From Patescibacteria group bacterium (GTDB lineage Bacteria; Patescibacteriota; Minisyncoccia; Phycocordibacterales; JACOZG01), in the NCBI GenBank assembly GCA_038065495.1, contig JBBTQW010000002.1, positions 261,373 through 325,372 on the forward strand: 64,000 nucleotides of DNA, in the 5' to 3' direction. Both the position numbers and the translations under genes were made by a program. The notes below the pieces were generated by a model, which was not told the origin of the DNA, made no database searches, and saw only the letters and a list, made by a program, of their open reading frames with translations. Positions 1 to 22,324 of the stretch are shown one piece after another. Every line of letters begins with the position of its first letter. Within the stretch, counting starts at the first letter, position 1.

Positions 1-1580
1 TCTATACAATATATCTCGTTAATTTTCTTTAGCCTTGAGATCAGGCGGATATTGGTGTGTGGCCCACAACCAACCTCCAGCGCTTTCCCGATTTGCGCTG
101 GCAAAGTGCGATAATTATCAAATTGCTTTTTCCACCAGAAGTTCCAATCATCACCAGCATAAAAATCGCGATACCACAGTAGTTCGAAAAAATTCTTTGG
201 ACTTCTCTTTAGAGCTCTCAAAAACTTAAGTAGTATCTGTGAGCGAGAATTATTCTGATTAGCTTTTACCCAACAACTTCGTTCAAATTCTTGCGCGGCT
301 AACCACTTCTGCTGATCAACAGCCAGTACCGAACCGTCTTTGTGTTCGTCAGCCGGCTTTAATCCATAACCAGTGATATATTCTGCAACTTTCGTTTTTA
401 GATTAAACTCATTGCGTATCCGCTCGCAGCCAGCTTCGCCCATTTGTTGTGCTTGCTGGGGATTTTGTAGAAGATTAATAATTTTTTCTGCCATTTTTTT
501 AGTATCAAACGGATTAACCACATAACCGGTGACGCCATCTACAATCGCTTCCGCCGCACCACCGTAGACTGTGCCGACCACCGGCTTGCTCATGGCCATA
601 GCTTCCAAGACCACGCGTGGCAAAGAATCAAAACAGATTGATGGCACCAGAACCACGTCAGCAACAGCATAAATCTTCTTAGATTCTTCCTGCTCGAGCC
701 AACCCGTAAAAATTAATTTATCGGCCAACCCCAATTGCTCCGCGCGCGCTCTAATTTGGTCAGCAGAATGATCAATTTTGCCAGCCACTAACAGCACGGC
801 ATTAGACATAACAGGAGAAATTTCTACTAATGCTTCTAGCGCCTGTCCTCCGCCCTTTGCTCCACTTAATCTCCCACTAAATAAAATCACTTTCTTGTCA
901 GTCAAATTATATTTTTTTATTAGCTTACTAGTGATAATCTCGTCAATCTGCCAGTCTGCTAGATTGATACCCGTGTGCATCACTGATGCATTTTTGATAC
1001 CGTTCTGCGCCAGGGCTTTCTTGAGCGCTCCACTAACCGCAAACATTTGATCAACGTAGCGCAGATACTTCTTAATTAAAAAGTTACGTAATGGATTCCA
1101 GCGCTTGCCTGCTTGTTGCAGGTGATCAAGCCAAGTGGTATGGGCATCGAGATTCTCCAGATATTTTCTAGTGACCAATTTACCGTAATTAAAAGTCATC
1201 ACGTCACGCGCGGTAAAGACTACTGTCTTAGCATACTTTTTAGCAATCTTAAGGCAGTGATAAGACAGATGAAAGTGAACATTATTTGCATGCACCACGT
1301 CTGGCCGGATTGTGCTTAATATTCTCTTCACTTCTCGCACCACCGGTGGATTGTACAAACTCAAATAAGCTCGCCAAAAACTTGGATAATTACTCAGGAT
1401 CCGGTAAATTTTAATCCCGTCTTGTTCAAATTCTCCGGCGTCTTTTTTGAGCCGACAAGTGGTCACCAGATAAACACTCTGCCCGGCTTCTTTAAGACCA
1501 AGGGCTAGCTCATGAGTAGAAACAGTCGCCCCCGCAAAACCTTGCGAGGGAGCATTATCGTGAAGCAGAACTATTTTCAT
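1..1580 (-). CDS. GT4-family glycosyltransferase. The reading frame stays open past the window start. The C-terminal extension carries a possible SAM-binding motif (LEVGCGPHTN). Partial.
   Basis: ATG at 1580..1578 on the minus strand. Translation MKIVLLHDNAPSQGFAG...EAMAMSKPVVGTVYGGAAEAIVDGVTGYVVNP shows classic GT4/GT-B motifs. I found no in-frame stop down to position 1. The N-terminus follows the stop of the downstream CE4 gene after a 13-nt gap. Confidence 0.7.
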   Translation of the reverse strand, partial: MKIVLLHDNAPSQGFAGATVSTHELALGLKEAGQSVYLVTTCRLKKDAGEFEQDGIKIYRILSNYPSFWRAYLSLYNPPVVREVKRILSTIRPDVVHANNVHFHLSYHCLKIAKKYAKTVVFTARDVMTFNYGKLVTRKYLENLDAHTTWLDHLQQAGKRWNPLRNFLIKKYLRYVDQMFAVSGALKKALAQNGIKNASVMHTGINLADWQIDEIITSKLIKKYNLTDKKVILFSGRLSGAKGGGQALEALVEISPVMSNAVLLVAGKIDHSADQIRARAEQLGLADKLIFTGWLEQEESKKIYAVADVVLVPSICFDSLPRVVLEAMAMSKPVVGTVYGGAAEAIVDGVTGYVVNPFDTKKMAEKIINLLQNPQQAQQMGEAGCERIRNEFNLKTKVAEYITGYGLKPADEHKDGSVLAVDQQKWLAAQEFERSCWVKANQNNSRSQILLKFLRALKRSPKNFFELLWYRDFYAGDDWNFWWKKQFDNYRTLPAQIGKALEVGCGPHTNIRLISRLKKINEIYCI

Positions 1581-1593
1581 ACTGGAACCCATA

Positions 1594-2343
1594 TCATTCC
1601 CACTCTAACACCTCACTATTAGATAAACAAACAATGTTTTGATGTTCTCTGACAAACTTAAGGAACGATTCGAGCTCTGACCACATTTCATATTTTTCCA
1701 GTTCCCAAGAGTGACCGTAGAGGTGGAAATAGTTGCCTTCGGCGAGAGCTTTTTTAAACCATTTTCGAGCCAACGACTGCCAAGATAAACTCCATTGCTT
1801 TGGGGTATAAGCCCGCATGGGATCAAGAATCCTTCGCCAGTACAAATTATTAGAATCTAGCCACCGCAAGGGAAACGGCTGGCAGATGATAGTCACGTCC
1901 ATCAGAAATTTTTTCTCTTTTGCTTTCTGAATAGAAAGTTTTTTGGTCGTACGAACACCCATGAAACCCGACTCTCTGACAACTTTCGTAAGAAATTCAT
2001 TGGATTTCCCGCCCGGGAAGGCAAAAATCTTGGCTGGTGAACCGGTAATTTTCTGCAAAAACTCTTGGCTACCTGTTATTTCACTTTTTGCCTCTTCTGG
2101 CGATATCTCTGTCAATCTAGAGTGCGTGAGCGAATGTCCTCCGACCTCATGAGAAACAGCAAGAGAACGAATCTCTTCTTCCGTCAGCCGACGATTATAA
2201 GCAGAATACTTACCAGTTCTTCCAGCAAATTTTTCTGGTACATAAAATGTACCCTTAATGCCGTAACGGGCTAGTAAATCCGCCACTTTTAGATCAAGCA
2301 CCGAGCCGTCGTCCCAACTGGTAGTAAATAATATTTTATTCAT
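1594..2343 (-). CDS. Polysaccharide deacetylase, CE4/NodB family.
   Basis: Motifs LFTTSWDDG (TFDDG-like) and HSLTH (H-S/T-x-x-H). The ATG at 2343 forms an ATGA overlap with the stop of the upstream gene. The ORF track gives a longer form, 1594..2376. Confidence 0.7.
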   Translation of the reverse strand: MNKILFTTSWDDGSVLDLKVADLLARYGIKGTFYVPEKFAGRTGKYSAYNRRLTEEEIRSLAVSHEVGGHSLTHSRLTEISPEEAKSEITGSQEFLQKITGSPAKIFAFPGGKSNEFLTKVVRESGFMGVRTTKKLSIQKAKEKKFLMDVTIICQPFPLRWLDSNNLYWRRILDPMRAYTPKQWSLSWQSLARKWFKKALAEGNYFHLYGHSWELEKYEMWSELESFLKFVREHQNIVCLSNSEVLEWE

Positions 2344-3482
2344 CGGATGTCTCTTAGTAGCAAACAAAATTTCCAAAACAACTTACTGTTGAGGCCTTGC
2401 TTACCGGCAGAGAAACCATAAGAATATGGTATTTTAAACCATCCTCCGCTCGCGACGGAAGATCCATAGGCCATGTTCACCGCCCTTACATGATTATTTA
2501 AATTATCTGGAGATCTAAGATTGTTCCACTCTCTCGAAGCAGACAGATGTTGACGGACGATGTCCGAAAACTCTCCCTCGCCTTGATCATAGGCTTGGAA
2601 AAAGACTGAAAAAGACGTCGGTAATAATAATCGAAATGATTCGACTTTTTTGCCAAACACTTTTGAGTCCCAGATTAATGATTTATCAAATTCCTCGATA
2701 AATTGCTGGTGTGACCAGCCGGTAGTAAACTTTACAGCAAATTTATCATTAGAGAACTTAACGTTCTGGGCATTTCTATTTACAAGAGTCTCTTTGGAAA
2801 CAAAACCGTCGAGCTCCATCACCGCTCTGGAGACAAGCACTATCCCTTCTTCAAGAAGAACCGAGAGTTCTTGGATAGCCAAACTTTCGTCTAGAGCAAA
2901 CCAATTCTCGCGCAAACTTTGTATTCTCTGCCCAAAACCGTGATCAATATCTACTCCAGATATTTCCCGCACCATCCACGACGTATACACGAGCGAATAT
3001 AAAGATCCGATCAACTGACGAACGTTTTGCGGTGCTTTCTTAAATTTACTGAAAAGTAATAACTTATTGACTAAAACATCAAACAGGATAAAAGCGAGTG
3101 TCCACTGGCGATTATTCTCCGGTATCGCCAAAAAATTATGCTCTATTCCCGCAATAAGACGAAGATTTGTAGTTTCTTGAGGATAGAGAAAATAAAAATA
3201 TTCAGCAGAACTCTGGCTAAAGCTTAAGTACCGATGAGTAAAGATAAAATTAGCTTTTTCTGATAAAGACCATGGATTACTTAGTGGTTTGGGCGTCAGT
3301 TCGTCCTTGTAGATGAGAACTATGTCTAAGTCCGAGATGCCTGGACACCATTCTCCTCCCATCAGGTAAGCAGCACTTACCGTTGGATTGCTTAAAGCCT
3401 CTTTTCTAATCAAATCAACGCACTTTTCATAGTCGGCTCGCTCTAGGCGTATCGGTAAATTATAACTATTTTTTATATTCAT
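2340..3482 (-). CDS. Nucleotidyltransferase-fold protein, possibly a LicD/fukutin-like phospho-alcohol transferase.
   Basis: GG-x-PGISDLDIV is a minimal polymerase-beta-type NTase motif (G[GS]...D-x-D). The gene is a tandem paralog of the next gene and is 380 aa long. Confidence 0.4.
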   Translation of the reverse strand: MNIKNSYNLPIRLERADYEKCVDLIRKEALSNPTVSAAYLMGGEWCPGISDLDIVLIYKDELTPKPLSNPWSLSEKANFIFTHRYLSFSQSSAEYFYFLYPQETTNLRLIAGIEHNFLAIPENNRQWTLAFILFDVLVNKLLLFSKFKKAPQNVRQLIGSLYSLVYTSWMVREISGVDIDHGFGQRIQSLRENWFALDESLAIQELSVLLEEGIVLVSRAVMELDGFVSKETLVNRNAQNVKFSNDKFAVKFTTGWSHQQFIEEFDKSLIWDSKVFGKKVESFRLLLPTSFSVFFQAYDQGEGEFSDIVRQHLSASREWNNLRSPDNLNNHVRAVNMAYGSSVASGGWFKIPYSYGFSAGKQGLNSKLFWKFCLLLRDIR

Positions 3483-4521
3483 AAAGATGAAGAAATTCTC
3501 TTGTTAGCCGTTCTATTTCGATAAGACTTTGTGCTGGACGTTTTAGCAAAGCTGGTTTTCTGGCAATGGCCACTATAATTCTAGACAACCAATATGGCAA
3601 ACTTACAATTAGTCTAGCTGGGAGGTATTTTACAAAATTAGACACTTCCCACTTTCTCATAATATCAGTCGCTTGATCAAGTGACCGTGCATCAAAATCA
3701 TTTAATACCTGCTTGACCTTAAGAAACGATTCTCTTTTATATACATATACACCTCTCGTCTGCAGAAGAAGCGACGGCAATAAAAATGTGTGCGCTAAAT
3801 CATTTTTCCAATCATACTGATTTCGACTCCAATTTCCGTTTTTAACTTTACGACGAAAGTGTTCCGTAAATTTCTCGAAGACTGCCGCTTGTTCGCTGGT
3901 ATCATCTCGGACGTCAAAATGGATTTGTCCTGTTCCCAACAAAAGCAGAGCCTGTTCATAAGAGGGTAATGGCAAAAAAGACTGAGGATAATAACTTAGA
4001 TCAAATTCTGTGATGAAAGATAGTTGATGATGAGCCAGCGGATCAATCCAATAACACAACAACCCCAGTTTCAAAAAAACTTTTTTTACTCTCTGTAAAT
4101 TAGTTACAGAATCAAACACGGAATCCTTTAGAACAATCATCGTGTCCAGATCACTCCACATGGGGATAAAGTCCCGCGTGGCATAACTACCGTGGACGAC
4201 AAAAGAGTGGATAAACTCATGGACAGAAGCCGCCTGATCACGCATTAGTCTGACTATCCGATAAGCAAAGTCTTTCTTAGCCAATCCAGAGTCAAAAATA
4301 TCGGAAATAGAGACCGTCTTAACGGACAGTTCCGGCGAAAGTTTGAGTCTCGCTCCCCTCAACTGGCGATATTGTTTGATTAAGGTTGGTGCATCTCCGT
4401 CTGGAGATTTCATGAAAATGCGAAGGTTTGTATTGAAGATAAGTTGCAGAGAGTTGAGCTCTGCAACAGATTTGATTTGATCTTGGCTTGAGAAATTCCT
4501 AGAAGAAGCCGCAGTTTTCAT
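3466..4521 (-). CDS. LicD/fukutin-like nucleotidyltransferase-fold protein (putative CDP-alcohol phosphotransferase).
   Basis: HGSYATRDFIPMWSDLDTMIV resembles the LicD signature G-S/T-LLG-x-R-x-x-FIPWDDDID. 351 aa, ATGA-coupled to the GT-C gene. Confidence 0.45.
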   Translation of the reverse strand: MKTAASSRNFSSQDQIKSVAELNSLQLIFNTNLRIFMKSPDGDAPTLIKQYRQLRGARLKLSPELSVKTVSISDIFDSGLAKKDFAYRIVRLMRDQAASVHEFIHSFVVHGSYATRDFIPMWSDLDTMIVLKDSVFDSVTNLQRVKKVFLKLGLLCYWIDPLAHHQLSFITEFDLSYYPQSFLPLPSYEQALLLLGTGQIHFDVRDDTSEQAAVFEKFTEHFRRKVKNGNWSRNQYDWKNDLAHTFLLPSLLLQTRGVYVYKRESFLKVKQVLNDFDARSLDQATDIMRKWEVSNFVKYLPARLIVSLPYWLSRIIVAIARKPALLKRPAQSLIEIERLTREFLHLYEYKK

Positions 4522-6287
4522 GCCTTGTGGTAAATAGCCACTTCACCAAATTCTACAGATTTTTCTAGAAAATTATACCGATCTAAATCCCAAGTTGGAT
4601 CAGTTTTTTTGTCCCAAATAATGTACTCAATTTCATACTTATCAAACACTTCCTGTAACCACCGAGAGTCTGGAGTCTCAAGAGTTTTGGTGTAAAATCT
4701 AACAAATTCTTCTATCTTTTCGTCTGGTATCGCCTCATATGAACCAAGTGCCTCTCGGTAATATATCCCGTAAATATTTGAAGAGAGGTACGCCCTATCT
4801 GCAAAAAACCTGTCCCGAGCAGTATCTTCTTCAACTTTCTCCAGACGATAAAGAGTGGCCACCACTTCTAACAAACGTTCCTTTGTCGCCGCGAGAGAAT
4901 TACCGGCCACTCGATGATAAAAAACATTGAGAGGAGTATAGATGACGGTCAAATGCGATACTTCGTTATTGGCCAGAACAACCGCCTCTTTTTGAGCATG
5001 CTCGCTTAGCCAACGCATAACCGGACCATATTTTTGTCTTTCAATCGCAATCTCGCCACCATCTCGCCAGTCAGAAAAATAGGAGATGACCTGAGTAAAC
5101 ATCCCCGTAAAAATACTCGCTAAAATAATGACAACGGCCAATGATTTCTTGTAAAAGATGAGTCCGCGAGAAGTTAAAAAATGAAAAATCACAAAAAGAA
5201 TCATTATGAGAGCCAGCGGTTTATTGAAAAACCAATGGTAGTGATCTACCTGCATAATTCTCCCGGTCAGAATCTGTTGATTGTGCGTGACAAAAGCTGT
5301 GAGCAACAAAGCCAAACCAAAGAAATATCTCTCTTTATCTTCCCTGGGGAATCCAATTAAAAAGATCATCAGAGCTGCAATCGTCGTGAAACCAACAAAG
5401 ATGGGTGCGTGAGATAAAACTAGACCAAACCGAGCGCTGGCTTCTGTAAAAGTAGGGTACATGGAAGCTCGGTAGAGATTGATAAAGTACGGAATGGCGA
5501 CCAACAAACCACCAACAAAAACACCCGCGAGCTTAACACTCTCTCGCCACTTTCTCTGTATAAGAAAAGACAGAACCAGAACACCGCCAAAAGCATACAA
5601 AAAAGTCCAAGTGTAGAAATAATTATAGAAGTTTAAGCCAAGCAGGACAGCGCTAGCTATGCCATAACGCCAATTGCGCTTCTGATAAAATAACCAAAAA
5701 GCTATTAAAAAGGCGAAAAAGGGAATGTAGGTCATCACCGGATTAACCGGCCGGGAAAGTTGCAAAAAATTGACCGGACCCAGGCCCGAAAATATCCGTG
5801 AGAGTCCGGAAAAAGAGATGACTGAGTCACCCAACAAGATTACTGCCGCACTCGATAGAGCGAGAAGTTTATCTGCCGATAATAAAAAAACAAAAGCGTA
5901 GAGCAGTAGAGAGACAACAAAAGAGAGAACAACGCGCGACAAGAGCAAGGTATTATTGATATCCAAACCAAACAATTCCCCCATGTAGCCCACAACCATC
6001 GGTTGCAGTGGCTGCCAGAGATACGGTCCATCTTTGCCGTCTTTGTAGTAGACATTACCCATGCCTGGATGCCCATCCAATACCTCTCGTGCAAGCGCAG
6101 AGCGCGGCGAGTCTGGCAAGAGCTCTATTCCCTGGTAAATACCGTCATCTTTATGATCAATGCGAAAATAGACCTGTGGAAAGGCAACAATGATTGAGGT
6201 AAGTAAGGCTAGAACAAGCGCCCAACGATGTTTTTGCAATATTAAACCCAGTTTCATCATCAGTTCTATGACCATTGATTGTACCAC
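4518..6287 (-). CDS. Polytopic membrane protein with a C-terminal soluble domain. Putative GT-C-type (ArnT/PMT/GtrC-like) glycosyltransferase.
   Basis: About 11 predicted TM helices in the first ~400 aa, a loop rich in D/G/Y (IDHKDDGIYQG...YYKDGKDGPYLWQP) and a ~190-aa hydrophilic C-terminus. The architecture is typical of GT-C enzymes. The start may be M10 at 6260. Confidence 0.4.
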   Translation of the reverse strand: MVQSMVIELMMKLGLILQKHRWALVLALLTSIIVAFPQVYFRIDHKDDGIYQGIELLPDSPRSALAREVLDGHPGMGNVYYKDGKDGPYLWQPLQPMVVGYMGELFGLDINNTLLLSRVVLSFVVSLLLYAFVFLLSADKLLALSSAAVILLGDSVISFSGLSRIFSGLGPVNFLQLSRPVNPVMTYIPFFAFLIAFWLFYQKRNWRYGIASAVLLGLNFYNYFYTWTFLYAFGGVLVLSFLIQRKWRESVKLAGVFVGGLLVAIPYFINLYRASMYPTFTEASARFGLVLSHAPIFVGFTTIAALMIFLIGFPREDKERYFFGLALLLTAFVTHNQQILTGRIMQVDHYHWFFNKPLALIMILFVIFHFLTSRGLIFYKKSLAVVIILASIFTGMFTQVISYFSDWRDGGEIAIERQKYGPVMRWLSEHAQKEAVVLANNEVSHLTVIYTPLNVFYHRVAGNSLAATKERLLEVVATLYRLEKVEEDTARDRFFADRAYLSSNIYGIYYREALGSYEAIPDEKIEEFVRFYTKTLETPDSRWLQEVFDKYEIEYIIWDKKTDPTWDLDRYNFLEKSVEFGEVAIYHKA

Positions 6288-8137
6288 AGCTGAAATATTA
6301 ACAGGGTCCAGAGTAATTTTCTATTATCTTCTTGTCCCGAAAAATGTTCTTCTTTTAGCTTCTGAATATAATCGAAGTCAAACAAACCAGCTTTTTTTAT
6401 AGCCTGTTCGCTTAGTATTTCATTGCAGAAATCTTTAAGCTCATTCCTTAACCAGCCGGCCAAAGGGATACTAAATCCTTGCTTACGACGATAAATAATA
6501 TTCTCAGGCAATTTATCTTTCATTAGCTTTTTCAAGATATATTTTGTCGTAAACATTCTACTTTTATACTTATAAGCCAAAGAATTAACGTAGTTAGCGA
6601 AAGTGAAATCTAGAAATGGCGCCCTCACCTCAAGAGCGTGGAACATGCTTGCTCGATCAACTTTTACCAACACCTCGTCCATTAGGTAAGTCCGTAAATA
6701 TAGATAAATGAGCTTATTAGACCAACTCACATTCTTCACTTCTCCCAAATAATGATCAATCTCTTCATACTCGTTACGATCTTTTAGCTTTTCCCAAACT
6801 TCTTTTTTAAACAACTTCTCTCTATCTTCTCTCACGAAACTGCCCAACCATCTCTGGTGGCGATATTCTGTAGCCGAGCCGAAACCGTCGATAAATTTTT
6901 TAGCCTTAAACCTAAGACCAAAATAGCCGTAGCTTACTGGCAGTTTAGAAACTATTTTGCTGATTATCTTATTCCGAATAAAAGACGGTATCAGGCTATA
7001 CAGACCGGCGACCTTTTCTGCCTTAAATGTGGGATAGCCAGCAAAGAGTTCATCGCCACCGTCGCCACCAAGAGCAACCGAAACATGCTTCTTAGCAAAT
7101 TCTGATAGAAATAGGGTTGGGATAATTGAAGCATCGGCGAGCGGCTCATCAATCACTGCTCCAATGTGCGGAATCATTTCCAGTAGATCTTGCGCACTTA
7201 AAATTTTAGAATAGTGGTCTGTCCCAAGAAAATCACTAACCTGTTTAGCATAATCTGATTCATCAAAGTTCTCGTCTTCAAATCCGATCGAAAAGGTTTT
7301 AATCTTCTCTTTACTATTTTTCTGAGCATAGTAAGCCACAGTCGAACTATCGATCCCCCCACTTAGAAAAACGCCAAGAGGCACATCAGATATTAATCTT
7401 CTTTTTACGCTTTCTTCTAGTTTGTGATCTAAAACTTTTAAAGCTTCACCGAGAGAGACGTCTTGTTGGACAAAGCTCATGCGCCAAAAGATTTTCTTTT
7501 TTATCTCTCCATTCTGGAAAGACAAACAAGACGCTGGTTCTAATTTGTAAACATCTTTAAAAATACTGTTTGGCGTAGGAACATATTCATACGCTAAGTA
7601 TTTATTTAGTGATTCTAGACTAATTTCTTTTCTAAAAGACGGATGCTTTAGTAGCGCCTTTAGTTCCGAACCAAACATAAACGTGCCGTCAAATATTCCC
7701 CAATAAAGTGGCTTCTTACCAAATCTGTCTCGTGCTAGCAATAACTTATTTACCCGGAAATCGTATAGAGCAATTGCAAACATGCCGTTAAGTTTTTCAA
7801 AGCACTCTTCACCATATTCTTCATACAGCGCAAGTATAACTTCTGTATCAGTGCCTGTGGTGAACTGGCGTGATTTACTTAAAGAAAGCTCCTCTCTTAG
7901 CTCACGGAAGTTATATACTTCGCCATTAAAAACAATCGCCACCGTCATAGCTTGGTTCCACATTGGTTGCTTACCTTTCTCGCTAACATCAAGAATACTC
8001 AACCTGGTGTGAGCTAATCCAACTCCGTCTCGATAATACAGCCCTTTGTCGTCCGGGCCACGGTGCTCAATTGCGGCACGCATAGACTCAAGGTCATCTA
8101 AACTTCCTTTGCCAATAAAGCCAGCTATTCCACACAT
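6266..8137 (-). CDS. asnB: Asparagine synthase (glutamine-hydrolysing), AsnB-family amidotransferase.
   Basis: N-terminal MCGIAGFIG (Cys2 Ntn nucleophile) and the SGGIDSS PP-loop. 623 aa. Confidence 0.85.
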   Translation of the reverse strand: MCGIAGFIGKGSLDDLESMRAAIEHRGPDDKGLYYRDGVGLAHTRLSILDVSEKGKQPMWNQAMTVAIVFNGEVYNFRELREELSLSKSRQFTTGTDTEVILALYEEYGEECFEKLNGMFAIALYDFRVNKLLLARDRFGKKPLYWGIFDGTFMFGSELKALLKHPSFRKEISLESLNKYLAYEYVPTPNSIFKDVYKLEPASCLSFQNGEIKKKIFWRMSFVQQDVSLGEALKVLDHKLEESVKRRLISDVPLGVFLSGGIDSSTVAYYAQKNSKEKIKTFSIGFEDENFDESDYAKQVSDFLGTDHYSKILSAQDLLEMIPHIGAVIDEPLADASIIPTLFLSEFAKKHVSVALGGDGGDELFAGYPTFKAEKVAGLYSLIPSFIRNKIISKIVSKLPVSYGYFGLRFKAKKFIDGFGSATEYRHQRWLGSFVREDREKLFKKEVWEKLKDRNEYEEIDHYLGEVKNVSWSNKLIYLYLRTYLMDEVLVKVDRASMFHALEVRAPFLDFTFANYVNSLAYKYKSRMFTTKYILKKLMKDKLPENIIYRRKQGFSIPLAGWLRNELKDFCNEILSEQAIKKAGLFDFDYIQKLKEEHFSGQEDNRKLLWTLLIFQLWYNQWS

Positions 8138-8140
8138 AAT

Positions 8141-8533
8141 TTATATTTCATTTTTTACTAAAAAAATCGCCCGGTAGGTGAAAAAACTAAATGCAGCAAT
8201 AAGCGTGGTCATGATAACTTGTGCTATAAAGTACCAGACGCCGACCTTATCTACCAAAACAAACATTCCCAAGTCGTTTACACCCAAACTAGCCAGACTA
8301 ACGATTAGAAACAGCATTAACTGTCTGGGAGCATCGGCTCCGGCGCGACTCTGGAAGGTCCAAAACTTTTGCAGTAAGAAACTAGTGATAAACGCTAAGA
8401 CAAACGCCAAGGTTGATGAATATAGATACCAAATATCTAAAACCTCTCGAAAAAAAACCAGAGACAGAAACATTACTCCAGAAGCAACGGAGCCTGAAAC
8501 AATATATTTCAATACAGTACTTGAAACATTCAT
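8141..8533 (-). CDS. GtrA-family small membrane protein (polyprenol-phosphate-sugar translocation accessory).
   Basis: 130 aa, 4 TM helices, LQKFWTFQS motif typical of the GtrA family. Sits 2 nt downstream of the GT2 gene. Confidence 0.65.
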   Translation of the reverse strand: MNVSSTVLKYIVSGSVASGVMFLSLVFFREVLDIWYLYSSTLAFVLAFITSFLLQKFWTFQSRAGADAPRQLMLFLIVSLASLGVNDLGMFVLVDKVGVWYFIAQVIMTTLIAAFSFFTYRAIFLVKNEI

Positions 8534-8535
8534 TA

Positions 8536-9474
8536 CTAGCTAGTTATATGCTCGCTTATGATGTAGCCTGGCTCTTTCCCCGACTGGCGCACAACCAGTT
8601 CGCCCAAAAAGCCAGAAACAAAAGACTGGAAACCAACCACCACCAAGAGCACACCAAGAAGTAACAATGGCCTGTCGCCAACAAATTCATCTACAACGAT
8701 GATCAGCCAACTCATGTAAGCAAGGATGACAAACCCGATAAACCCTACTACAAAACCAAAGAAGCCGAACAAGTGCATCGGTCGATTACTAAAACGCCCC
8801 AAAAGAACAATAGATATAAAATCAAAAAAACTCTTGAAGAACCGGCCAAAATTGCCGTATTTACTCTCACCAAACTCTCGCTTGCGGTGATGCACCTTCT
8901 GCTCACTTACTTTATAACCCTTGCTGGCTACAATCGCCGGAATATACCGATGATGATCGCCGGTGAGAACCAAACTTTTTGCGACTTCACTCTTATACAA
9001 TTTATAACCGCAGTTCATGTCGTGGACATAAGCTCCTGTCACCAAGCCAGTTATCCAATTCGCAATTTTCGACACTAAGCCCTTACTCATCCCATCTAGA
9101 CGGTTTTGCTTCCAACCAACAACCAAGTCACCACCTCGTTTCACCTCGTCGAGAAAATTGGGAATTTCTGCCGGATCATCTTGTAAATCGCCGTCCATTG
9201 TAATGATATACCTGCCACGTGCCTGATCGAAACCCGCCTGCAACGCTTGCGATTTACCAAAGTTCCTGGCAAAACGAATAATCGTGGCTGGCTTGAACTG
9301 AGTTAAGACTTCAAATGTGTTATCACTAGAACCATCGTCAACAAAAATAATTTCAAAACTTTTGTCTAACTTCGTCAGCACACTAAGCAGCTCAGCATGA
9401 AGTTGGGGAACAGATTCCGCTTCGTTATAGACCGGAATAACCAGTGATAATTCCAGACTCGAGTCATTATTCAT
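8536..9474 (-). CDS. GT2 polyprenol-phosphate glycosyltransferase (DPM1/GtrB/ArnC-like) with C-terminal TM helices.
   Basis: LSLVIPVYNEAESV...FVDDGSSD...DGDLQDD (DxD motif), two C-terminal TM segments, 312 aa. Confidence 0.8.
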   Translation of the reverse strand: MNNDSSLELSLVIPVYNEAESVPQLHAELLSVLTKLDKSFEIIFVDDGSSDNTFEVLTQFKPATIIRFARNFGKSQALQAGFDQARGRYIITMDGDLQDDPAEIPNFLDEVKRGGDLVVGWKQNRLDGMSKGLVSKIANWITGLVTGAYVHDMNCGYKLYKSEVAKSLVLTGDHHRYIPAIVASKGYKVSEQKVHHRKREFGESKYGNFGRFFKSFFDFISIVLLGRFSNRPMHLFGFFGFVVGFIGFVILAYMSWLIIVVDEFVGDRPLLLLGVLLVVVGFQSFVSGFLGELVVRQSGKEPGYIISEHITS

Positions 9475-9506: not shown

Positions 9507-10667
9507 TCAACTCTGGCCGCGAGATCCGCGCAAGTCACTAATCAGCCTGTCGATTGACTCCTGCACCGACAAGACGGAGATAGACAACACTTGCCGGAGA
9601 GCTTCTTCTTGATTATATGATCTAGCATTTAAAATCGAAAGTTCTGCTCTAACCCTACCGGGAGGCAAAACATTGCGATGAATAAACCCGCGCGGTGGTT
9701 GCACGCGTTCGTCCACCGGGCCAACAATATTTATGGTTGGGATATCAAATGCTTCCGCAATATAAATCGGCCCGGTATCGACACTGATAAACAGATTAAC
9801 TTTCGAGATAAAGGCCTTCAACTCATCAAGATCAAATCGACCAACTGTATTTATTATCGCCACTTTTTTCTTAGAGTGCCCGATTAATTCTTTTGCTTTT
9901 TCGTTGTCTCCCTTACCACCGGTGATGATTATTTTTGCATTATATTTCTCAACCAGATAATCAGCCACCGTGGCAAAACGTTCCGTCGGCCACTCCTTTA
10001 TTTTATTCCCCGCCGATGGTGATATTGCCACTACAAAATCTCTTTTAAAGTTAATATTTTCGTCAACAAAAAACTGTTCTGTTTTTTTATTAGCCCACTC
10101 AGAAAATCCAAGTTGTTTCTTGGTATCTTCGGAAAAAACGCCCAGGGACTCAAGGGCTCTGAGCCTTTCTCGAGGAGCGTACTCTCCGATCTGATAGGGA
10201 AAAGTGCACATGAGATGCCGAAGAATTCTGTATGGCCACGTCTCGGCTGGGGAAAAACCGCCTTGCACCACCGGCACCACTACGAGAGGAATGCCGGCCA
10301 AGTATAATAAAGCGGCAGAAACAAACGATGGTCCAGTAACTAATGCCGCATCAGCATGAGACTCTCCGGTACGCGCTACCGCTCGCGGCTCTTCCAGATC
10401 AAGATACTCGTCCACCAGGCCACTGTCCGCAAAGAGCGGCCGATGAAGCTTGCTTGTGCCCGCCACAATTAGCCGCGCCCCTGGCAAGTGCGCCCGGACA
10501 GCACGCAAGACTGGCGTAACGCAGACTACATCGCCTAGTTTTCCTGTCGGCACTACGATAATTCTGGAGACTTGAATGGGAGGCCTGTTAGCCTTACCAG
10601 AAATCAAAGCCCGAAGCAGACAGCCGAGCAAAAGCAAAAACCGGTAAGTTCTGCTCGAGCGCCTCAT
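9507..10667 (-). CDS. GT9-family glycosyltransferase (heptosyltransferase-like).
   Basis: KLGDVVCVTPVLRAVR near the N-terminus and FISVDTGPIYIAEAFDIPTINIVGP near the C-terminus match the GT9 RLGDV.../VGNDSGPMHLAAA... signatures. Confidence 0.65.
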   Translation of the reverse strand: MRRSSRTYRFLLLLGCLLRALISGKANRPPIQVSRIIVVPTGKLGDVVCVTPVLRAVRAHLPGARLIVAGTSKLHRPLFADSGLVDEYLDLEEPRAVARTGESHADAALVTGPSFVSAALLYLAGIPLVVVPVVQGGFSPAETWPYRILRHLMCTFPYQIGEYAPRERLRALESLGVFSEDTKKQLGFSEWANKKTEQFFVDENINFKRDFVVAISPSAGNKIKEWPTERFATVADYLVEKYNAKIIITGGKGDNEKAKELIGHSKKKVAIINTVGRFDLDELKAFISKVNLFISVDTGPIYIAEAFDIPTINIVGPVDERVQPPRGFIHRNVLPPGRVRAELSILNARSYNQEEALRQVLSISVLSVQESIDRLISDLRGSRGQS

Positions 10668-11839
10668 GTTGATCGCTTAATGAAACTCGCGATATTGGCA
10701 CCGCGACTCTCCCAAGTATATTTGTTTTTAGTAACCATTGCTTGAGCCGCTAGCCTATTCCCCAGTTCACCGTCATCGTAAATCTCCAGAATCGCCTTAG
10801 CCCAGCCACTTGCATTATTTTCGCCAACAATCAGTGCGTCTAGATTATTAGTTAAAACTTCCTCAATACACTCTGCCCGACCAGCAATAATCGGCCGACG
10901 AGCGGCCAGCGCCGGGAACATCTTGGCCGGAGAATCACCAATTAAATCTTTTTTTCGCTTCGGAATGAGGACCACATCAAAGGCCTGAAGGTAGTTTGGA
11001 ATTACGCTTCTCTCCTGCCAAGGCACAATGATAACACGACTAGACACATCAAATTCTCTAGCAATCTGCCGCAGCCACTCCGCATTGCCGCTAATCTCTC
11101 CTACAATCACCGCAGAAACATCAACTGGCAAATCAGCAAGACTTCTCACAATATCGTCCACCTCATAATAATCATTATTAGGGTTAGCCCCTATCACGCC
11201 AGTATAACCTACCAAAAAAGCATTCTGTGGTAACGACAACTGTTGCCGTAGCGTCTCTCTGTTTTTAGAATAATCAAACCAAGAGTCTTCAGCAGCGCTG
11301 CAAAGTGAGACGAGAATATTATTATTGGCCTTCTGGTAATAATTTTTAAGTCCCGAACTAATTGCCACTACGCCATCGGCCCACTGCACCGCCAGCTTAT
11401 TAAACCACTGCTTCGATCGTCGTTCCAAAACTGAGTGAATCTCAAAAAAAACTTTTTTTCGCAAAACAAGTTTGACCCACAAAGCTGCAAAAACTAGTGT
11501 GGAATCCCGAAAATACAGAGCATTAAATTTTCTGGCTTGAGCTGACAAAAAAAACATCAAGCTAACGTTGGCTGAGAAAAATGCTATCAGCTCATACCAT
11601 TTTTTGCCAGAACAAGGAGAAGTTGTATCCGTTGCCCCCAAACACGTTACTAAAAATGGTCGGAGAACCGCCATTCTCTCAAAGAAGGCTGCATCGCTTA
11701 CTACTTTTTTATTAGTAGTCACAAGCCTGACTCTCAAATCCTGCTCAGCATTGAGGGCCTCACAAGTTTTAGCCAGATTATAAACATTAGTTCTACCAGA
11801 CAAAAGATTAGCTCGTGAAATATGGATGATATCAGTCAT
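10664..11839 (-). CDS. GT4-family glycosyltransferase.
   Basis: GT-B C-terminal domain: VGYTGVIGANPN...VVLIPKRKKDLIGDSPAKMFPALAARRPIIAG. 391 aa. Confidence 0.6.
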   Translation of the reverse strand: MTDIIHISRANLLSGRTNVYNLAKTCEALNAEQDLRVRLVTTNKKVVSDAAFFERMAVLRPFLVTCLGATDTTSPCSGKKWYELIAFFSANVSLMFFLSAQARKFNALYFRDSTLVFAALWVKLVLRKKVFFEIHSVLERRSKQWFNKLAVQWADGVVAISSGLKNYYQKANNNILVSLCSAAEDSWFDYSKNRETLRQQLSLPQNAFLVGYTGVIGANPNNDYYEVDDIVRSLADLPVDVSAVIVGEISGNAEWLRQIAREFDVSSRVIIVPWQERSVIPNYLQAFDVVLIPKRKKDLIGDSPAKMFPALAARRPIIAGRAECIEEVLTNNLDALIVGENNASGWAKAILEIYDDGELGNRLAAQAMVTKNKYTWESRGANIASFIKRST

Positions 11840-11862: not shown

Positions 11863-12777
11863 CTACTTAGCCACAAGAGAGCGGAAACTGTTTACGATCT
11901 CCTCACCGCTCTTCTCTTGGTACGCCTCAAGGTGCATCTTGCGTTGTCTCTCCTGGAGATAATGAACAAACAAGATACTATCATAAGACTCTGGTGCAAT
12001 GCGAGCCCCGATTTTACCAAAATATTGCGGCAAATACCTCTCGCAATTAGTCCGCAATAAACCGATACGGCCTTCGGACTTGAGAAACAAATTAAAAAGA
12101 TCGAAACCAGGCAATTTGCTTATACCTACGTGGTCATAATCAATCAAATTAATCTGCTCTCCGTAAATCAGCACATTATCAAGAGTAAAGTCTCCATGCT
12201 GGACCAATACAGGTAATTTGACATTAGAATCGAAAGCTAGATGCTTGTAATAATTGCTCAACACAAGCGCTGAGTCTCCCGATAATCCTAACGTTTTGAT
12301 TGTCTTATTAGCCAGATCAGTGATATCTCCAGAGCCCCAAGTCTTCTCTGTGCTAGTTGCTAGATGTGATTGCCAGCCAATATATTTCTCAATCACAAGA
12401 GCAGTGTCTCGCTCCAACAACGAGAACTTCACCCCTGGGCAAACGGATTCGAGAGAAAAAACCAAATTATCCTTATCGTGCAGGTAGAGCGGCTTGGCAA
12501 ACATGTCGGCATAGACACTGCCACGCACCCCCTCAGCCAATGACTGAAGATTTGAATAATTATTCCTGATCACCTCGCCCGCGGAATAAGTACGTGTAGT
12601 TTTAGCACAAATCGTTGGTCTTCTTTCTCCCTCTTCAAACACGAACACGAGCACCTTGCTTTCTTCCGCTCCATACTCCGGCTCCGGCGTACTCATCTTC
12701 ATAAACGACAAACTAGAGCCTGGTTTTCGCAACCAGTTAGGATTTTCCCCCATCACTTGTTTAAGCCAGGAAATCAT
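11863..12777 (-). CDS. APH/choline-kinase-like phosphotransferase (protein-kinase fold). Putative sugar or alcohol kinase.
   Basis: Brenner motif VQHGDFTLDNVLIYG followed by INLIDYDHVG. 304 aa. Confidence 0.6.
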   Translation of the reverse strand: MISWLKQVMGENPNWLRKPGSSLSFMKMSTPEPEYGAEESKVLVFVFEEGERRPTICAKTTRTYSAGEVIRNNYSNLQSLAEGVRGSVYADMFAKPLYLHDKDNLVFSLESVCPGVKFSLLERDTALVIEKYIGWQSHLATSTEKTWGSGDITDLANKTIKTLGLSGDSALVLSNYYKHLAFDSNVKLPVLVQHGDFTLDNVLIYGEQINLIDYDHVGISKLPGFDLFNLFLKSEGRIGLLRTNCERYLPQYFGKIGARIAPESYDSILFVHYLQERQRKMHLEAYQEKSGEEIVNSFRSLVAK

Positions 12778-19771: not shown

Positions 19772-20627
19772 TGACCAATACTTTATCAGCGATTTCCTTC
19801 ATCGTCAAAATTTCTATCTTGCCTTGATCTCGTAAGTTCCGCGCGCGCTCGAGAAGGGCTTCCAAAATTTTGAACTGATTTTCGACATCATAAGAGAAAT
19901 TACTGGGATGAAACCAAAGGTGAAAAACCTCCCTGCGAGCAACAGCTCGATCCAAACCAGCATTCATCTTAGCAATCATTAAGCCTGGTGAGACAAGTCT
20001 TCTTAAGCCATCTCGTCCAAGTAACAAAAGACTATCGGGGATATTCACCAGACCATTATCGGCGATATGTGGCCGAACAGTATAGACACTAGGCAAAAAA
20101 TAATCTAACCAACGACAAAATCTTTTCACCAACCTCAAGGGAACGGCGTCAAACCACTTGCGAGAATTCCCGCGATAGCACACCAAGCCGCTAGAACGCA
20201 ATGAACCGAGCCACCTGACCTGATTGCGCGGAAAAACAAAGGAATGGAAAGGTAGTCCATGCTTATCGTGCACGCGTTTGGCATTTTGTAAATCTAACTC
20301 AACTATTCTTTGATCTACTTCGTTATAAATAATGTGCCCATAAGAATGACTGCCAATCTCCTGTGAGACTTTAGAATTATTAATCAGTTCTATTGTTCTC
20401 CTAGAATCAAACCAGAGATCGAGATGACCCTCTTCCGCAACAGGCTCCAGCAACCGCCCAACAATAGCCCAGGTTGCCGATACTTGGTACTGTTCGAATA
20501 ATTTCACTAACCGCTCAACAATCAAATATTCCTGTTTAATGAGTGACCGTTGTTTGCTATCAATTTTTCGGTCCACATAACCCCAGGCCAACTCATGGTC
20601 AATGCTGATAGTAAAAATACCCTTCAT
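19761..20627 (-). CDS. Divergent polysaccharide deacetylase-like protein (CE4-like).
   Basis: ISIDHE (divergent TFDDG position), SHSYGH (H-S-x-x-H) and FVFPRNQV. 288 aa, ATGA overlap with the upstream ATPase. Confidence 0.5.
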   Translation of the reverse strand: MKGIFTISIDHELAWGYVDRKIDSKQRSLIKQEYLIVERLVKLFEQYQVSATWAIVGRLLEPVAEEGHLDLWFDSRRTIELINNSKVSQEIGSHSYGHIIYNEVDQRIVELDLQNAKRVHDKHGLPFHSFVFPRNQVRWLGSLRSSGLVCYRGNSRKWFDAVPLRLVKRFCRWLDYFLPSVYTVRPHIADNGLVNIPDSLLLLGRDGLRRLVSPGLMIAKMNAGLDRAVARREVFHLWFHPSNFSYDVENQFKILEALLERARNLRDQGKIEILTMKEIADKVLVNVH

Positions 20628-22324
20628 ACTTCCAACATTTTCTTGAGTTCTTGCTCGGGAATTTCGCTTGGTTTACTGACTGGCGCGGAGTTTTGATTAG
20701 GTTGAGAAACAGGATTAGGAGCAATGGGAGTAGTATTAGATTTAGGCAAAGCTGACTGGACTTCTTGCTGGACCGAGGCAATCACTTGCTTGAGATCAGC
20801 GCTGTGGCGACCGGTGCTCTTCTCGCGATCAGTTGACTTCTCAGCCAAAGACTTGAGGGAAACTACTTTCTCTGGCTCTCTGGCTGTTTCGCGCACTGGT
20901 CTAACCACCTTTTCTGGCGACACACTTTGCGTTTGAGGCCTTCTCTCTAGCGCTGACTCGCGGCGCGGCTCACGCTTCGGTTCTCGCGCTTCTGGCGAGC
21001 CTTTCTCACCAGCGGTGGCCGGCTTAACCGCCATCCACTCGCCAATCTCCTGCTCGACCACCGAGCGCGGCTTGGCATAAGCTTGACGCGAGTTTTGGAT
21101 AATCTCTTCCCGAAACGAGTGCGTAAGTGGTTTGATCGGCGGCAGAGTAACGGCCGAGAACGGTTGCGAACCAACGCCGTTGATCATCATGGTGAGATAA
21201 ACCTGGGCAAAGCCAAGATTCACCATGTCTTCTTGCGTAAATGTCGGCGCAAAAATCTTCTCAAACACTTCGGCGTCAAACGGACCAACTCGGAACGACA
21301 CAATCGTACCAACGTTGCCGAAGACCGCCGCACGCACCTCCTCACTCATCTGCTCAATGTACTGATGCGCGATGGTAAGCGAAAGTTTGTATTTCCGCGC
21401 TTCGGAGAGAATATTCGCAAAAGACTCATTAGCGAAAGATTGGAATTCGTCCACAAACAAATAAAATGGTGGCACTAGCCTCATCTGCGCGGAGTTAAGA
21501 TTAGCGCGGCTCATGGCGGCGAGATAAATTTTCGTGATAATCATCGAGCCGAGAAGATTAGCATTACCTTCACCGATCTGACCTTTCGACAAGTTAATAA
21601 TTAAAATTTTCTTCTCGTCCATCACTTTGCGAAAGTCAAAAGAAGACTTGGGCTGGCCAATGATGTTTCTAATCAACGGATTAGAGGTAAACTGACCGAT
21701 TTTGTTCTGGATCGCCGGCGTCGCCTCGGCGGCAAAACGCTCGGTATAATTCGCAAACTCTTGCGTCCAGTAAGCCTTGACCGAAGCATCCGTGACATTG
21801 GCCACCACCTTGTTCCGATAAGCTTTTTCCGTCAGCATGCGGTTAACGCCGAGCAAAGTTGAGTCCGGATACTCGAGTAGTGCTAATAAAGTATTCTGGA
21901 GAATGTACTGCATCCGATCAGAGAAGCTCTCCTCGCCGAAAAGTTTTTTGAAAGCGCTCATCAAACCGTTAACGACTAAATGTCTCTGTTCCGGCCCCAC
22001 GTCTTCCATCACGTTAAACGAGATTGGATTCTCGAGATCAAATGGTGCAAAGTAGACCACGTCTTTGATCCGATTCTCTGGCACATATTCCAGAAGCTTT
22101 TCTGCCATACTGCCGTGCGGATCAATCACCGCCACGCCATGGCCATCGGCGATATCTTGCACCACCATGTTCTCGAGCATGGTACTCTTGCCCATGCCCG
22201 TCTTGCCGATCACATACACGTGCCGCGCGCGATCCTCAAACTTGATGCCAAAGCGCGTGCGCTTGCCCCGGAAGTCCGTCTCGGCAAAGTAAGTTTTATC
22301 TTTGATAATTTCGCTTTCAGCCAT
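20624..22324 (-). CDS. Soluble P-loop ATPase of the HerA/FtsK/VirD4 (TraG/TraD-like) superfamily with a disordered basic C-terminal tail.
   Basis: Walker A VIGKTGMGKST, Walker B LFVDEFQSF, and IAHQY. No N-terminal TM segment. The last ~150 aa are low-complexity, rich in K/R/E/P/S. Confidence 0.6.
   Translation of the reverse strand: MAESEIIKDKTYFAETDFRGKRTRFGIKFEDRARHVYVIGKTGMGKSTMLENMVVQDIADGHGVAVIDPHGSMAEKLLEYVPENRIKDVVYFAPFDLENPISFNVMEDVGPEQRHLVVNGLMSAFKKLFGEESFSDRMQYILQNTLLALLEYPDSTLLGVNRMLTEKAYRNKVVANVTDASVKAYWTQEFANYTERFAAEATPAIQNKIGQFTSNPLIRNIIGQPKSSFDFRKVMDEKKILIINLSKGQIGEGNANLLGSMIITKIYLAAMSRANLNSAQMRLVPPFYLFVDEFQSFANESFANILSEARKYKLSLTIAHQYIEQMSEEVRAAVFGNVGTIVSFRVGPFDAEVFEKIFAPTFTQEDMVNLGFAQVYLTMMINGVGSQPFSAVTLPPIKPLTHSFREEIIQNSRQAYAKPRSVVEQEIGEWMAVKPATAGEKGSPEAREPKREPRRESALERRPQTQSVSPEKVVRPVRETAREPEKVVSLKSLAEKSTDREKSTGRHSADLKQVIASVQQEVQSALPKSNTTPIAPNPVSQPNQNSAPVSKPSEIPEQELKKMLEV

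Follow-up and report, generated by a model that had tools for sequence, protein, structure and literature searches.

What is the function of two adjacent genes for proteins of nucleotidyltransferase (NTase) fold that lie within a glycan-biosynthesis operon of a Patescibacteria group bacterium? The DNA analysed, hereafter the window, is a stretch of 64,000 nucleotides from contig JBBTQW010000002.1 (assembly GCA_038065495.1, positions 261,373 to 325,372), and the two genes are designated ORF-B and ORF-A (ORF, open reading frame). From position 20627 leftward to the window edge only minus-strand genes are found, abutting or overlapping one another, and they encode several GT4 glycosyltransferases, S-adenosylmethionine (SAM) methyltransferases, two CE4 deacetylases, a GT9 glycosyltransferase, a GtrB-like GT2 with a GtrA-like protein, an AsnB-like amidotransferase, a 589-aa polytopic membrane protein, ORF-B and ORF-A, in agreement with the glycan-biosynthesis setting recognised by the initial annotation of this DNA. 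We give about an even chance to the proposal that ORF-B and ORF-A constitute a co-translated, probably heteromeric NTase, with an architecture like that of the aminoglycoside nucleotidyltransferases (ANT), acting on a glycan intermediate or precursor. The pair and the genes flanking it are the following:

1594..2343, minus strand: CE4 polysaccharide deacetylase (PF01522 at 6e-20), without signal peptide
2340..3482, minus strand: ORF-A, 380 aa; N-terminal NTase core and, after it, a long helical domain carrying a small insert rich in beta structure
3466..4521, minus strand: ORF-B, 351 aa; Pol-beta/MNT-type NTase core at about residues 85-205, then an all-helical C-terminal domain
4518..6287, minus strand: 589-aa polytopic membrane protein, without Pfam family

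The two neighbouring proteins of about 350-380 aa announced by the initial annotation are thus present, and their reading frames overlap by 17 nt. The stop codon of the membrane-protein gene shares an ATGA with the ATG of ORF-B, and the stop codon of ORF-A does the same with the ATG of the CE4 gene; because of these overlaps, the four genes are translationally coupled. The translation of ORF-B contains FVVHGSYATRDFIPMWSDLDTMIVLKD, and with it the string originally quoted, FIPMWSDLDTMI, as well as HGSYATRDFIPMWSDLDTMIVLKD. A G-S...D-x-D signature had been attributed to both proteins; it was found in ORF-B, whereas ORF-A reads YLMGGEWCPGISDLDIVLIY, with G-G rather than G-S ahead of the S-D-x-D, so that only the DxD part of the claim holds for it.

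The motif residues are HGS110-112, SDxD123-126, D160, H164 and H165 in ORF-B, and GG42-43, GISDLD48-53 and H83 in ORF-A. Across the ORF-B family (38 sequences) S112, S123, D124, D160, H165, P184, P249 and K262 were 100% conserved, and G111, D126, H164 and K239 were conserved in at least 95%. In the ORF-A family (81 sequences) Y18, G48, S50, D51 and D53 were invariant, and G42, H83, G112, R155, R191, W194, F195 and P288 reached at least 90%. The motif hG[GS]-x(9-13)-Dh[DE]h was present and conserved in both families; the NTase motifs are under selection in each of them, and the metal-binding DxD is retained by both partners (D124/D126 in B, D51/D53 in A). The fully conserved D160 of ORF-B is a candidate third carboxylate.

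The view of the two genes as tandem paralogs survived in a remote sense. BLASTP aligned the two proteins with E=0.006 over 56 aa around the motif and default hhalign gave a probability of 17%, whereas a permissive hhalign comparison of the B alignment with the 81-sequence A alignment reached a probability of 73% (E=3e-5, 260 columns, 13% identity) and paired H165-x-LSF...YPQ of B with H83-x-x-LSF...YPQ of A. In fusion proteins, the B half was also matched by the A profile, at E values of about 1e-6 to 4e-5. Judged from these alignments, ORF-A and ORF-B appear to be paralogs only remotely.

ORF-B passed the Pfam model NTP_transf_2 (PF01909; 22.7 bits against a cut-off of 21) and had a weak Polbeta match too, while ORF-A had no Pfam, NCBIfam or PDB match on single-sequence search. 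At E<=1 neither protein matched LicD (PF04991) or any NCBIfam model. When family members were scanned singly at E<=10, Polbeta was detected in 15/16 and NTP_transf_2 in 14/16 of the B family, weak NTP_transf_2 in 26/81 and weak Polbeta (PF18765) in 19/81 of the A family, and PF04991 in none of the 97 (16 B and 81 A). The Pfam families KNTase_C, DUF4111 and Adenyl_transf had no match in ORF-A, ORF-B or the scanned members. Profile searches of the PDB at E<=10 yielded marginal matches to NTase cores only (DrrA, CdnD, LinB and AF0614), and neither FKRP nor fukutin was returned.

AlphaFold2 models built on the family alignments were confident, with a pLDDT of 88.9 and a pTM of 0.88 for ORF-B, and a pLDDT of 88.1 and a pTM of 0.90 for ORF-A. 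In both models an alpha-beta NTase core precedes a large helical domain, in keeping with the NTase fold originally assigned; this core and its conserved DxD are features of the whole superfamily and are not diagnostic for LicD. The best Foldseek matches in the PDB were, for both models, AadA/ANT(3'')(9), AAD(9) and the MNT antitoxin, with LinB and KNTase added for ORF-B (probability 0.8-0.94, E about 1e-2, TM 0.25-0.45, 8-17% identity over about 270-310 columns). Such neighbours had been named by the initial annotation as speaking against a LicD assignment, and no FKRP, fukutin or other LicD-type structure was among the best 50 of the 113 and 185 matches. Membership of the LicD family was therefore rejected, on the Pfam scans of window proteins and of the 97 members, the PDB profile searches and the best 50 Foldseek matches, none of which brought up a LicD-type protein. 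The curated antibiotic-resistance ANT family was likewise rejected, given the lack of an NCBIfam match and the glycan-operon setting.

A word-indexed homologue search of 5.8 billion proteins produced 16 clusters for B and 15 for A, and an exhaustive profile search with the A alignment retrieved 1,271 cluster representatives (50% identity) at E<=1e-3, 568 of them at E<=1e-10, most being 350-420 aa long and aligned over their full length. A hypothetical protein from a metagenome-assembled genome (MAG) of the Patescibacteria group has 100% identity to ORF-A. No literature was found that ties NTP_transf_2 to polysaccharide and glycosyltransferase. ORF-B and ORF-A are an unnamed family pair of known fold within the Pol-beta superfamily. 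One A-family protein of 556 aa (P0039) has an extra C-terminal domain of about 180 aa without Pfam match, which might hint at the substrate.

To follow the pair across genomes, the GTDB species genomes were scanned with the 15-sequence A alignment, which returned 25 loci from Paceibacterota, Saccharibacteria, Bacteroidota/Bacteroidia, Ignavibacteria, Desulfobacterales, Nitrospinota, Spirochaetales, Elusimicrobia, Chloroflexia, WOR-3, Methanosarcinales, Nanoarchaeota and Woesearchaeota. All the fetched loci were then searched with hidden Markov models of both families. B was upstream of A in 26 of the 28 distinct loci, which come from Patescibacteria, Saccharibacteria, Bacteroidota, Desulfobacterales, Nitrospinota, Spirochaetales, WOR-3, Methanosarcinales, Nanoarchaeota and Woesearchaeota, and the contigs carrying B homologues had an A homologue directly downstream every time. 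The two genes overlapped or lay a few bases apart in most of the B-then-A loci; one or two glycan genes separated them in several Bacteroidota loci (a sulfotransferase and a GINT1_N-like protein, or a methyltransferase), and in one locus they were divergent (L026). An exception to the B-then-A order was the locus of a Chloroflexia MAG (L030:2725-10395), with several A-family ORFs or fragments and no detected B-family gene, which may reflect an assembly or frameshift problem or a lineage-specific expansion.

Fusions of the two genes were also detected. They form a single 814-aa ORF in L016, and the profile search brought up further, independent fusions. The two are joined in P0160 (B at 8-263, A at 302-640) and in P0139 (B at 112-390, A at 470-824), the latter continuing into a coiled coil and a GT4 domain (1205-1302). 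In P0134 the A protein (3-387) is fused to a CE4 deacetylase (Polysacc_deac_1, 396-513) and DUF3473, the CE4 family being the same as that of the gene that follows ORF-A in the window.

The surroundings of the pair were those of polysaccharide loci. GT4 was present in 27/31 of the fetched loci, a Wzx flippase in 12/31, usually directly upstream of B, and an AsnB-like amidotransferase homologue within 8 kb of the pair in 13/31, including Bacteroidota and Saccharibacteria. SAM methyltransferases occurred in most loci, and Wzy, UDP-glucose dehydrogenase and GT9 in several. A B12-binding radical-SAM enzyme adjoins A in five phylogenetically scattered loci, bacterial and archaeal (L002, 13442-14929; L008; L010; L013; L021), and the NTase pair may have a functional connection with a methylation step. 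Neither protein had plasmid homologues by tblastn, and a mobile-element origin was rejected on that result. As a portable cassette of two genes, B-A belongs to Wzx/Wzy-type polysaccharide loci of Bacteria and Archaea, where its distribution is wide but sparse. As additional observations, SAM methyltransferases hold the position of the radical-SAM enzyme in Bacteroidota, WOR-3 and Patescibacteria loci, and the AsnB-like loci include L015, L018, L019, L022 and L024-L028.

The fold, the conservation of the motifs in both partners, the B-then-A adjacency with overlap, the fusions and the glycan-locus context are the established observations on which the functional proposal was built. Gene order, overlap and fusion support a B-A complex, and we infer from them that the two proteins would form a heterodimer. 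By eye, no hydrophobic N-terminal leader or membrane segment was seen in either sequence, and because neither has such a leader their site of action is most likely the cytoplasm. There, the heteromer would use the two-metal chemistry of the DxD motif, with a sugar hydroxyl on a lipid-linked repeat unit or glycan precursor attacking an NTP or NDP-X donor; the acceptor, presumed to be a glycan or its precursor, would acquire a nucleotidyl or phospho-linked substituent on a sugar, around which the neighbouring CE4 deacetylase, GT4 and methyltransferases would work.

A bolder version of this proposal makes the B-A cassette the catalytic core of an unrecognised, cross-domain, non-carbohydrate decoration of glycans by a heterodimeric ANT-like enzyme. 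Examples would be sugar O-nucleotidylylation, or a phospho-linked cap elaborated by methyltransferases or amidotransferases, setting B-A apart from LicD, TagF, Stealth and the alkaline-phosphatase-type transferases. We regard that version as speculative and rather unlikely.

The closest architectural precedents are AadA/ANT(3'')(9), AAD(9), LinB and KNTase/ANT(4'), which share with ORF-B and ORF-A an N-terminal Pol-beta NTase core (G[SG]...DxD) plus a helical domain. The aminoglycoside and lincosamide nucleotidyltransferases O-nucleotidylylate sugar hydroxyls, and KNTase and LinB form dimers whose active sites are shared, which sets a precedent for a heteromer of B and A. Compared with these ANT/Lnu enzymes, ORF-B and ORF-A are 90-130 residues longer, match no NCBIfam or Pfam resistance-family model and are an obligate two-gene heteropair whose setting is glycan operons, not resistance contexts, and ORF-B has an extra invariant D160/H164/H165 cluster. 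The MNT families (PF01909, PF18765) are the only profile families that were matched, and the hG[GS]-x(9-13)-DxD signature is common to them and the pair; however, MNTs are proteins of about 100-150 aa, usually with a HEPN partner, whereas ORF-B and ORF-A have 350-380 aa, an NTase motif in both and a helical domain of their own each. With LicD, fukutin and FKRP (PF04991/COG3475, PF06828) the pair shares the superfamily, the DxD centre, an occasional glycosyltransferase fusion and, if its presumed role is right, the decoration of glycans on the cytoplasmic side. It differs from them in having no profile or fold match to them and no linked CDP-alcohol pathway, and in being a conserved heteropair, whereas LicD enzymes act as single proteins.

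Several results weigh against the proposed heteromeric glycan NTase. The models match solved structures only weakly (E about 1e-2, TM 0.25-0.45), so that "ANT-like" describes their architecture and not a close kinship. A conserved third acidic residue was not seen among the 81 sequences of the ORF-A family, where H83 occupies the aligned region, and ORF-A, without an obvious third carboxylate, might be a non-catalytic partner. No donor-synthesis gene was consistently linked to the pair in the 26 loci. The loci were fetched through relatives of ORF-A, and the co-occurrence counts are consequently not phylogenetically independent. Finally, all the cluster members are annotated as "hypothetical protein" and all come from metagenomes.

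The remaining element of the initial annotation was a kinase encoded farther upstream in the same operon, in a group of four genes:

9507..10667, minus strand: GT9 glycosyltransferase (Pfam scan), last gene of the methyltransferase-kinase-GT4-GT9 cassette
10664..11839, minus strand: GT4 glycosyltransferase (Pfam scan), third gene of the cassette
11863..12777, minus strand: APH/choline-kinase-like kinase, 304 aa, with HGDFTLDN and IDYD; PF01636 at 18.4 bits
12774..13721, minus strand: class I SAM methyltransferase (Methyltransf_31/11/25), 315 aa, its frame overlapping the kinase gene by 4 nt

The HGDxxxxN Brenner motif attributed to the kinase was confirmed, the sequence reading QHGDFTLDNV and IDYD, and in an alignment of 19 sequences G195, D196, N201, D213 and D215 were invariant, with H194 in less than 90%. 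Its placement in the APH/choline-kinase superfamily also stood: the window kinase scored below the cut-off of PF01636 (23.2 bits), and among its relatives APH (PF01636) was matched in 19/19 (best 2.3e-7) and Choline_kinase (PF01633) in 12/19 (best 6.4e-8). The best solved relatives by the kinase profile were Plasmodium choline kinases (E about 0.03), and the NCBIfam matches were all sub-threshold (CotS, APH(3') and Bud32). The source names of the relatives include Zambryskibacteria, Levybacteria and Minisyncoccia.

No sign of LicA orthology or of lic neighbours was found, the conserved neighbours of the kinase being the methyltransferase, GT4 and GT9. L033 and L034 keep the four-gene cassette, as does L032 with an inserted radical-SAM gene; in these three loci the methyltransferase precedes the kinase with a 4-nt overlap, and neither the NTase pair nor any lic-type gene is present. 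Conversely, about 25 other loci have the pair but not this kinase. The kinase belongs to a module separate from the NTase pair, and the LicA-LicD type of partnership suggested for them was not borne out. Its most likely role is the phosphorylation of a sugar, or of the glycan as such, and not a supply function for the pair; an anomeric sugar kinase or an ethanolamine/choline kinase are possible identities. NahK, AmgK and MtnK are sugar kinases of APH fold, and the combination of GT9, GT4 and a kinase recalls the waa genes of the lipopolysaccharide core. In L032 the cassette adjoins a B12-radical SAM enzyme, a PfkB kinase, a HAD phosphatase and a transaldolase, which could make up a heptose-type donor pathway for the GT9.

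The initial annotation had also reported that no cytidylyltransferase is encoded in the window, and none was found in the window proteins checked, including ten ORFs between 20.6 and 62.6 kb (nine with 184-318 aa and a 566-aa ORF at 20624..22324), which are ribosomal proteins, triosephosphate isomerase (TIM), trigger factor, an M50 peptidase, a metallo-beta-lactamase-fold protein, a pilin-like protein and a type IV secretion system (T4SS) coupling protein. One does lie in the same operon, about 2.8 kb past the left edge of the window, where the operon continues, as seen on a contig with an identical ORF-A (L005:11891-16167). The gene that runs off that edge is the following:

3..1604, minus strand: N-terminal part of a GT4-methyltransferase fusion, an open frame cut by the left edge of the window

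On the L005 contig this fusion, 676 aa in full, follows the CE4 gene, and after it come a PF02348 (CTP_transf_3) cytidylyltransferase, a phosphatase of the inositol-monophosphatase family, a short NeuB, a 143-aa ORF, a 593-aa protein without Pfam family, a methyltransferase and a Wzx flippase. The combination of PF02348, phosphatase and NeuB looks like a CMP-ulosonic/nonulosonic acid pathway (of the CMP-Kdo/CMP-sialic-acid type) and not a CDP-alcohol pathway. In the Saccharibacteria loci with the pair, a PF02348-methyltransferase fusion is encoded two genes downstream of A, and a nearby ORF groups in BLAST comparisons with the NeuB ORF of L005. The association of PF02348 and NeuB with the pair is not general across the loci.

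With these results in hand, the alternatives can be weighed. According to the initial annotation, the pair would be LicD/fukutin-like and transfer phosphocholine, ribitol-phosphate or glycerol-phosphate from a CDP-alcohol, with the kinase supplying the phospho-alcohol in the manner of LicA. The LicD family belongs to the NTase superfamily as one of its branches and uses CDP conjugates (PMC2794190, PMC11666461); the pair lies in glycan loci and has a GT4 fusion in P0139, NTase-glycosyltransferase fusions having been described for the LicD group as well (PMC11666461); and the relatives of the kinase do match Choline_kinase. Nevertheless, neither PF04991 nor FKRP/fukutin was recovered in the searches reported above, the kinase and the pair are separable modules, and the search for a linked gene of the LicC, TarI or TagD type led only to the PF02348 cytidylyltransferase beside NeuB and the phosphatase. 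The resemblance to the LicD motif FIPWDDDID did not hold up either, since the "FIP" of FIPMWSDLD is not conserved in the ORF-B family. We consider this explanation distinctly unlikely; a LicD-like chemistry, namely the transfer of a phospho-substituent from an NDP-X donor, is a minority possibility to which no finding points specifically. For the kinase module, a different comparison can be drawn with WbdD, the kinase-methyltransferase chain terminator of the Escherichia coli O9a O-antigen (PMC3482155): the methyltransferase and kinase genes could be a split WbdD analogue, phosphorylating the non-reducing terminal sugar and then methylating the phosphate to cap the chain, or the kinase could be a WaaP-like glycan kinase working with GT9 and GT4. 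The N-terminal methyltransferase of WbdD directly precedes its kinase domain (PMC3482155), and in our locus the same order of a methyltransferase and a kinase resembling eukaryotic protein kinases/APH is found, as two overlapping genes in a glycan-assembly locus, and is conserved with GT4 and GT9 in L032-L034. On the other hand, the genes are separate here, the proteins (315 and 304 aa) would be too short for the long C-terminal coiled-coil domain of WbdD, the locus has a Wzx flippase instead of the ABC transporter typical of capped O-antigens, and the best kinase matches were choline kinases, the other kinase types mentioned above being possible as well. WbdD was absent from the PDB matches of the kinase profile (E<=10) and from the best 60 matches of the methyltransferase; homology to WbdD was rejected for lack of sequence support in these searches, and the analogy was retained as a tentative reading with a minor share of the probability.

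Two further explanations concern the pair itself. It could act on a soluble small molecule, nucleotidylylating a sugar-phosphate, an acid or another precursor into a donor for GT4 or another transferase, as would suit two apparently cytoplasmic proteins that adjoin GT4 genes, and are fused to one, and near which precursor-pathway genes recur (AsnB-like, UDP-glucose dehydrogenase and B12-radical SAM); the conserved basic residues of the helical domains (K239 and K262 of B, R155 and R191 of A) could bind a phosphorylated substrate. The known sugar-activating nucleotidyltransferases, however, have other folds (PF00483, PF02348 and PF01467), Pol-beta enzymes typically modify hydroxyls of larger acceptors, and the CE4 deacetylase fusion fits a polymer or lipid-linked substrate better, making a small-molecule substrate doubtful. 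Far less probable is a role unrelated to glycans, as an MNT/HEPN-like toxin-antitoxin, a defence system or an aminoglycoside/lincosamide resistance NTase. This could be argued from the best structural matches, which are resistance enzymes and the MNT antitoxin, and from the match of the ORF-B core to the PADLOC candidate PDC-S09 (E=1.3e-5), but the latter spans a 50-residue NTase core only, no ANT/Lnu or other NCBIfam model was matched, and NTase motifs are present in both partners, unlike in MNT-HEPN pairs. In addition, no plasmid homologues of the pair were found by tblastn, and the pair is locked by overlapping frames into polysaccharide operons of distant phyla, and is fused to GT4 and CE4. 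The heteromeric ANT-like NTase acting on a glycan intermediate or precursor was accordingly kept as the preferred reading.

Non-sugar decorations of surface glycans shape recognition by phages, the immune system and symbionts, and the enzymes known to add phospho-linked groups belong to few families (LicD, TagF-like, Stealth and the phosphoethanolamine transferases). If glycan modification by the preferred heteromeric NTase is true, the B-A pair would add another enzyme class to that list and provide a handle on the essentially unknown cell-surface chemistry of the episymbiotic bacteria of the candidate phyla radiation (CPR) and of the DPANN archaea. Should its role be limited to making a precursor, the pair would still represent a sizeable family that can now be annotated (about 1,270 A-profile representatives at 50% identity). 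An attractive but unsupported phosphocholine/LicD annotation is also corrected.

Orthologues of the 589-aa membrane protein adjoin the pair only in the close Patescibacteria loci L001, L005 and L007. The CE4 gene is syntenic in the same three loci and, with its ATGA overlap and the A-CE4 fusion P0134 also in view, the deacetylase is likely to act in the step after the NTase pair in this lineage. The other genes of the window noted in this study are the following:

6266..8137, minus strand: AsnB-like glutamine amidotransferase (GATase_7 and Asn_synthase; PF00733 at 2.8e-98)
8141..9474, minus strand: GtrB-like GT2 (312 aa) and GtrA-like small membrane protein (130 aa)
20624..22324, minus strand: 566-aa VirD4/TraG-like T4SS coupling-protein homologue that has a long tail of low complexity, directly upstream of the glycan operon
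22388..25156, minus strand: 922-aa Thr-, Pro- and Val-rich protein that starts with a hydrophobic leader, next upstream

Housekeeping genes were detected among the ORFs sampled rightward of 27 kb (ribosomal proteins, TIM and trigger factor). Within the glycan operon, the GT2, the GtrA-like protein and the 589-aa membrane protein recall, by analogy, a three-component system of polyprenyl-phosphate-sugar glycosylation (GtrA/GtrB/GT-C).

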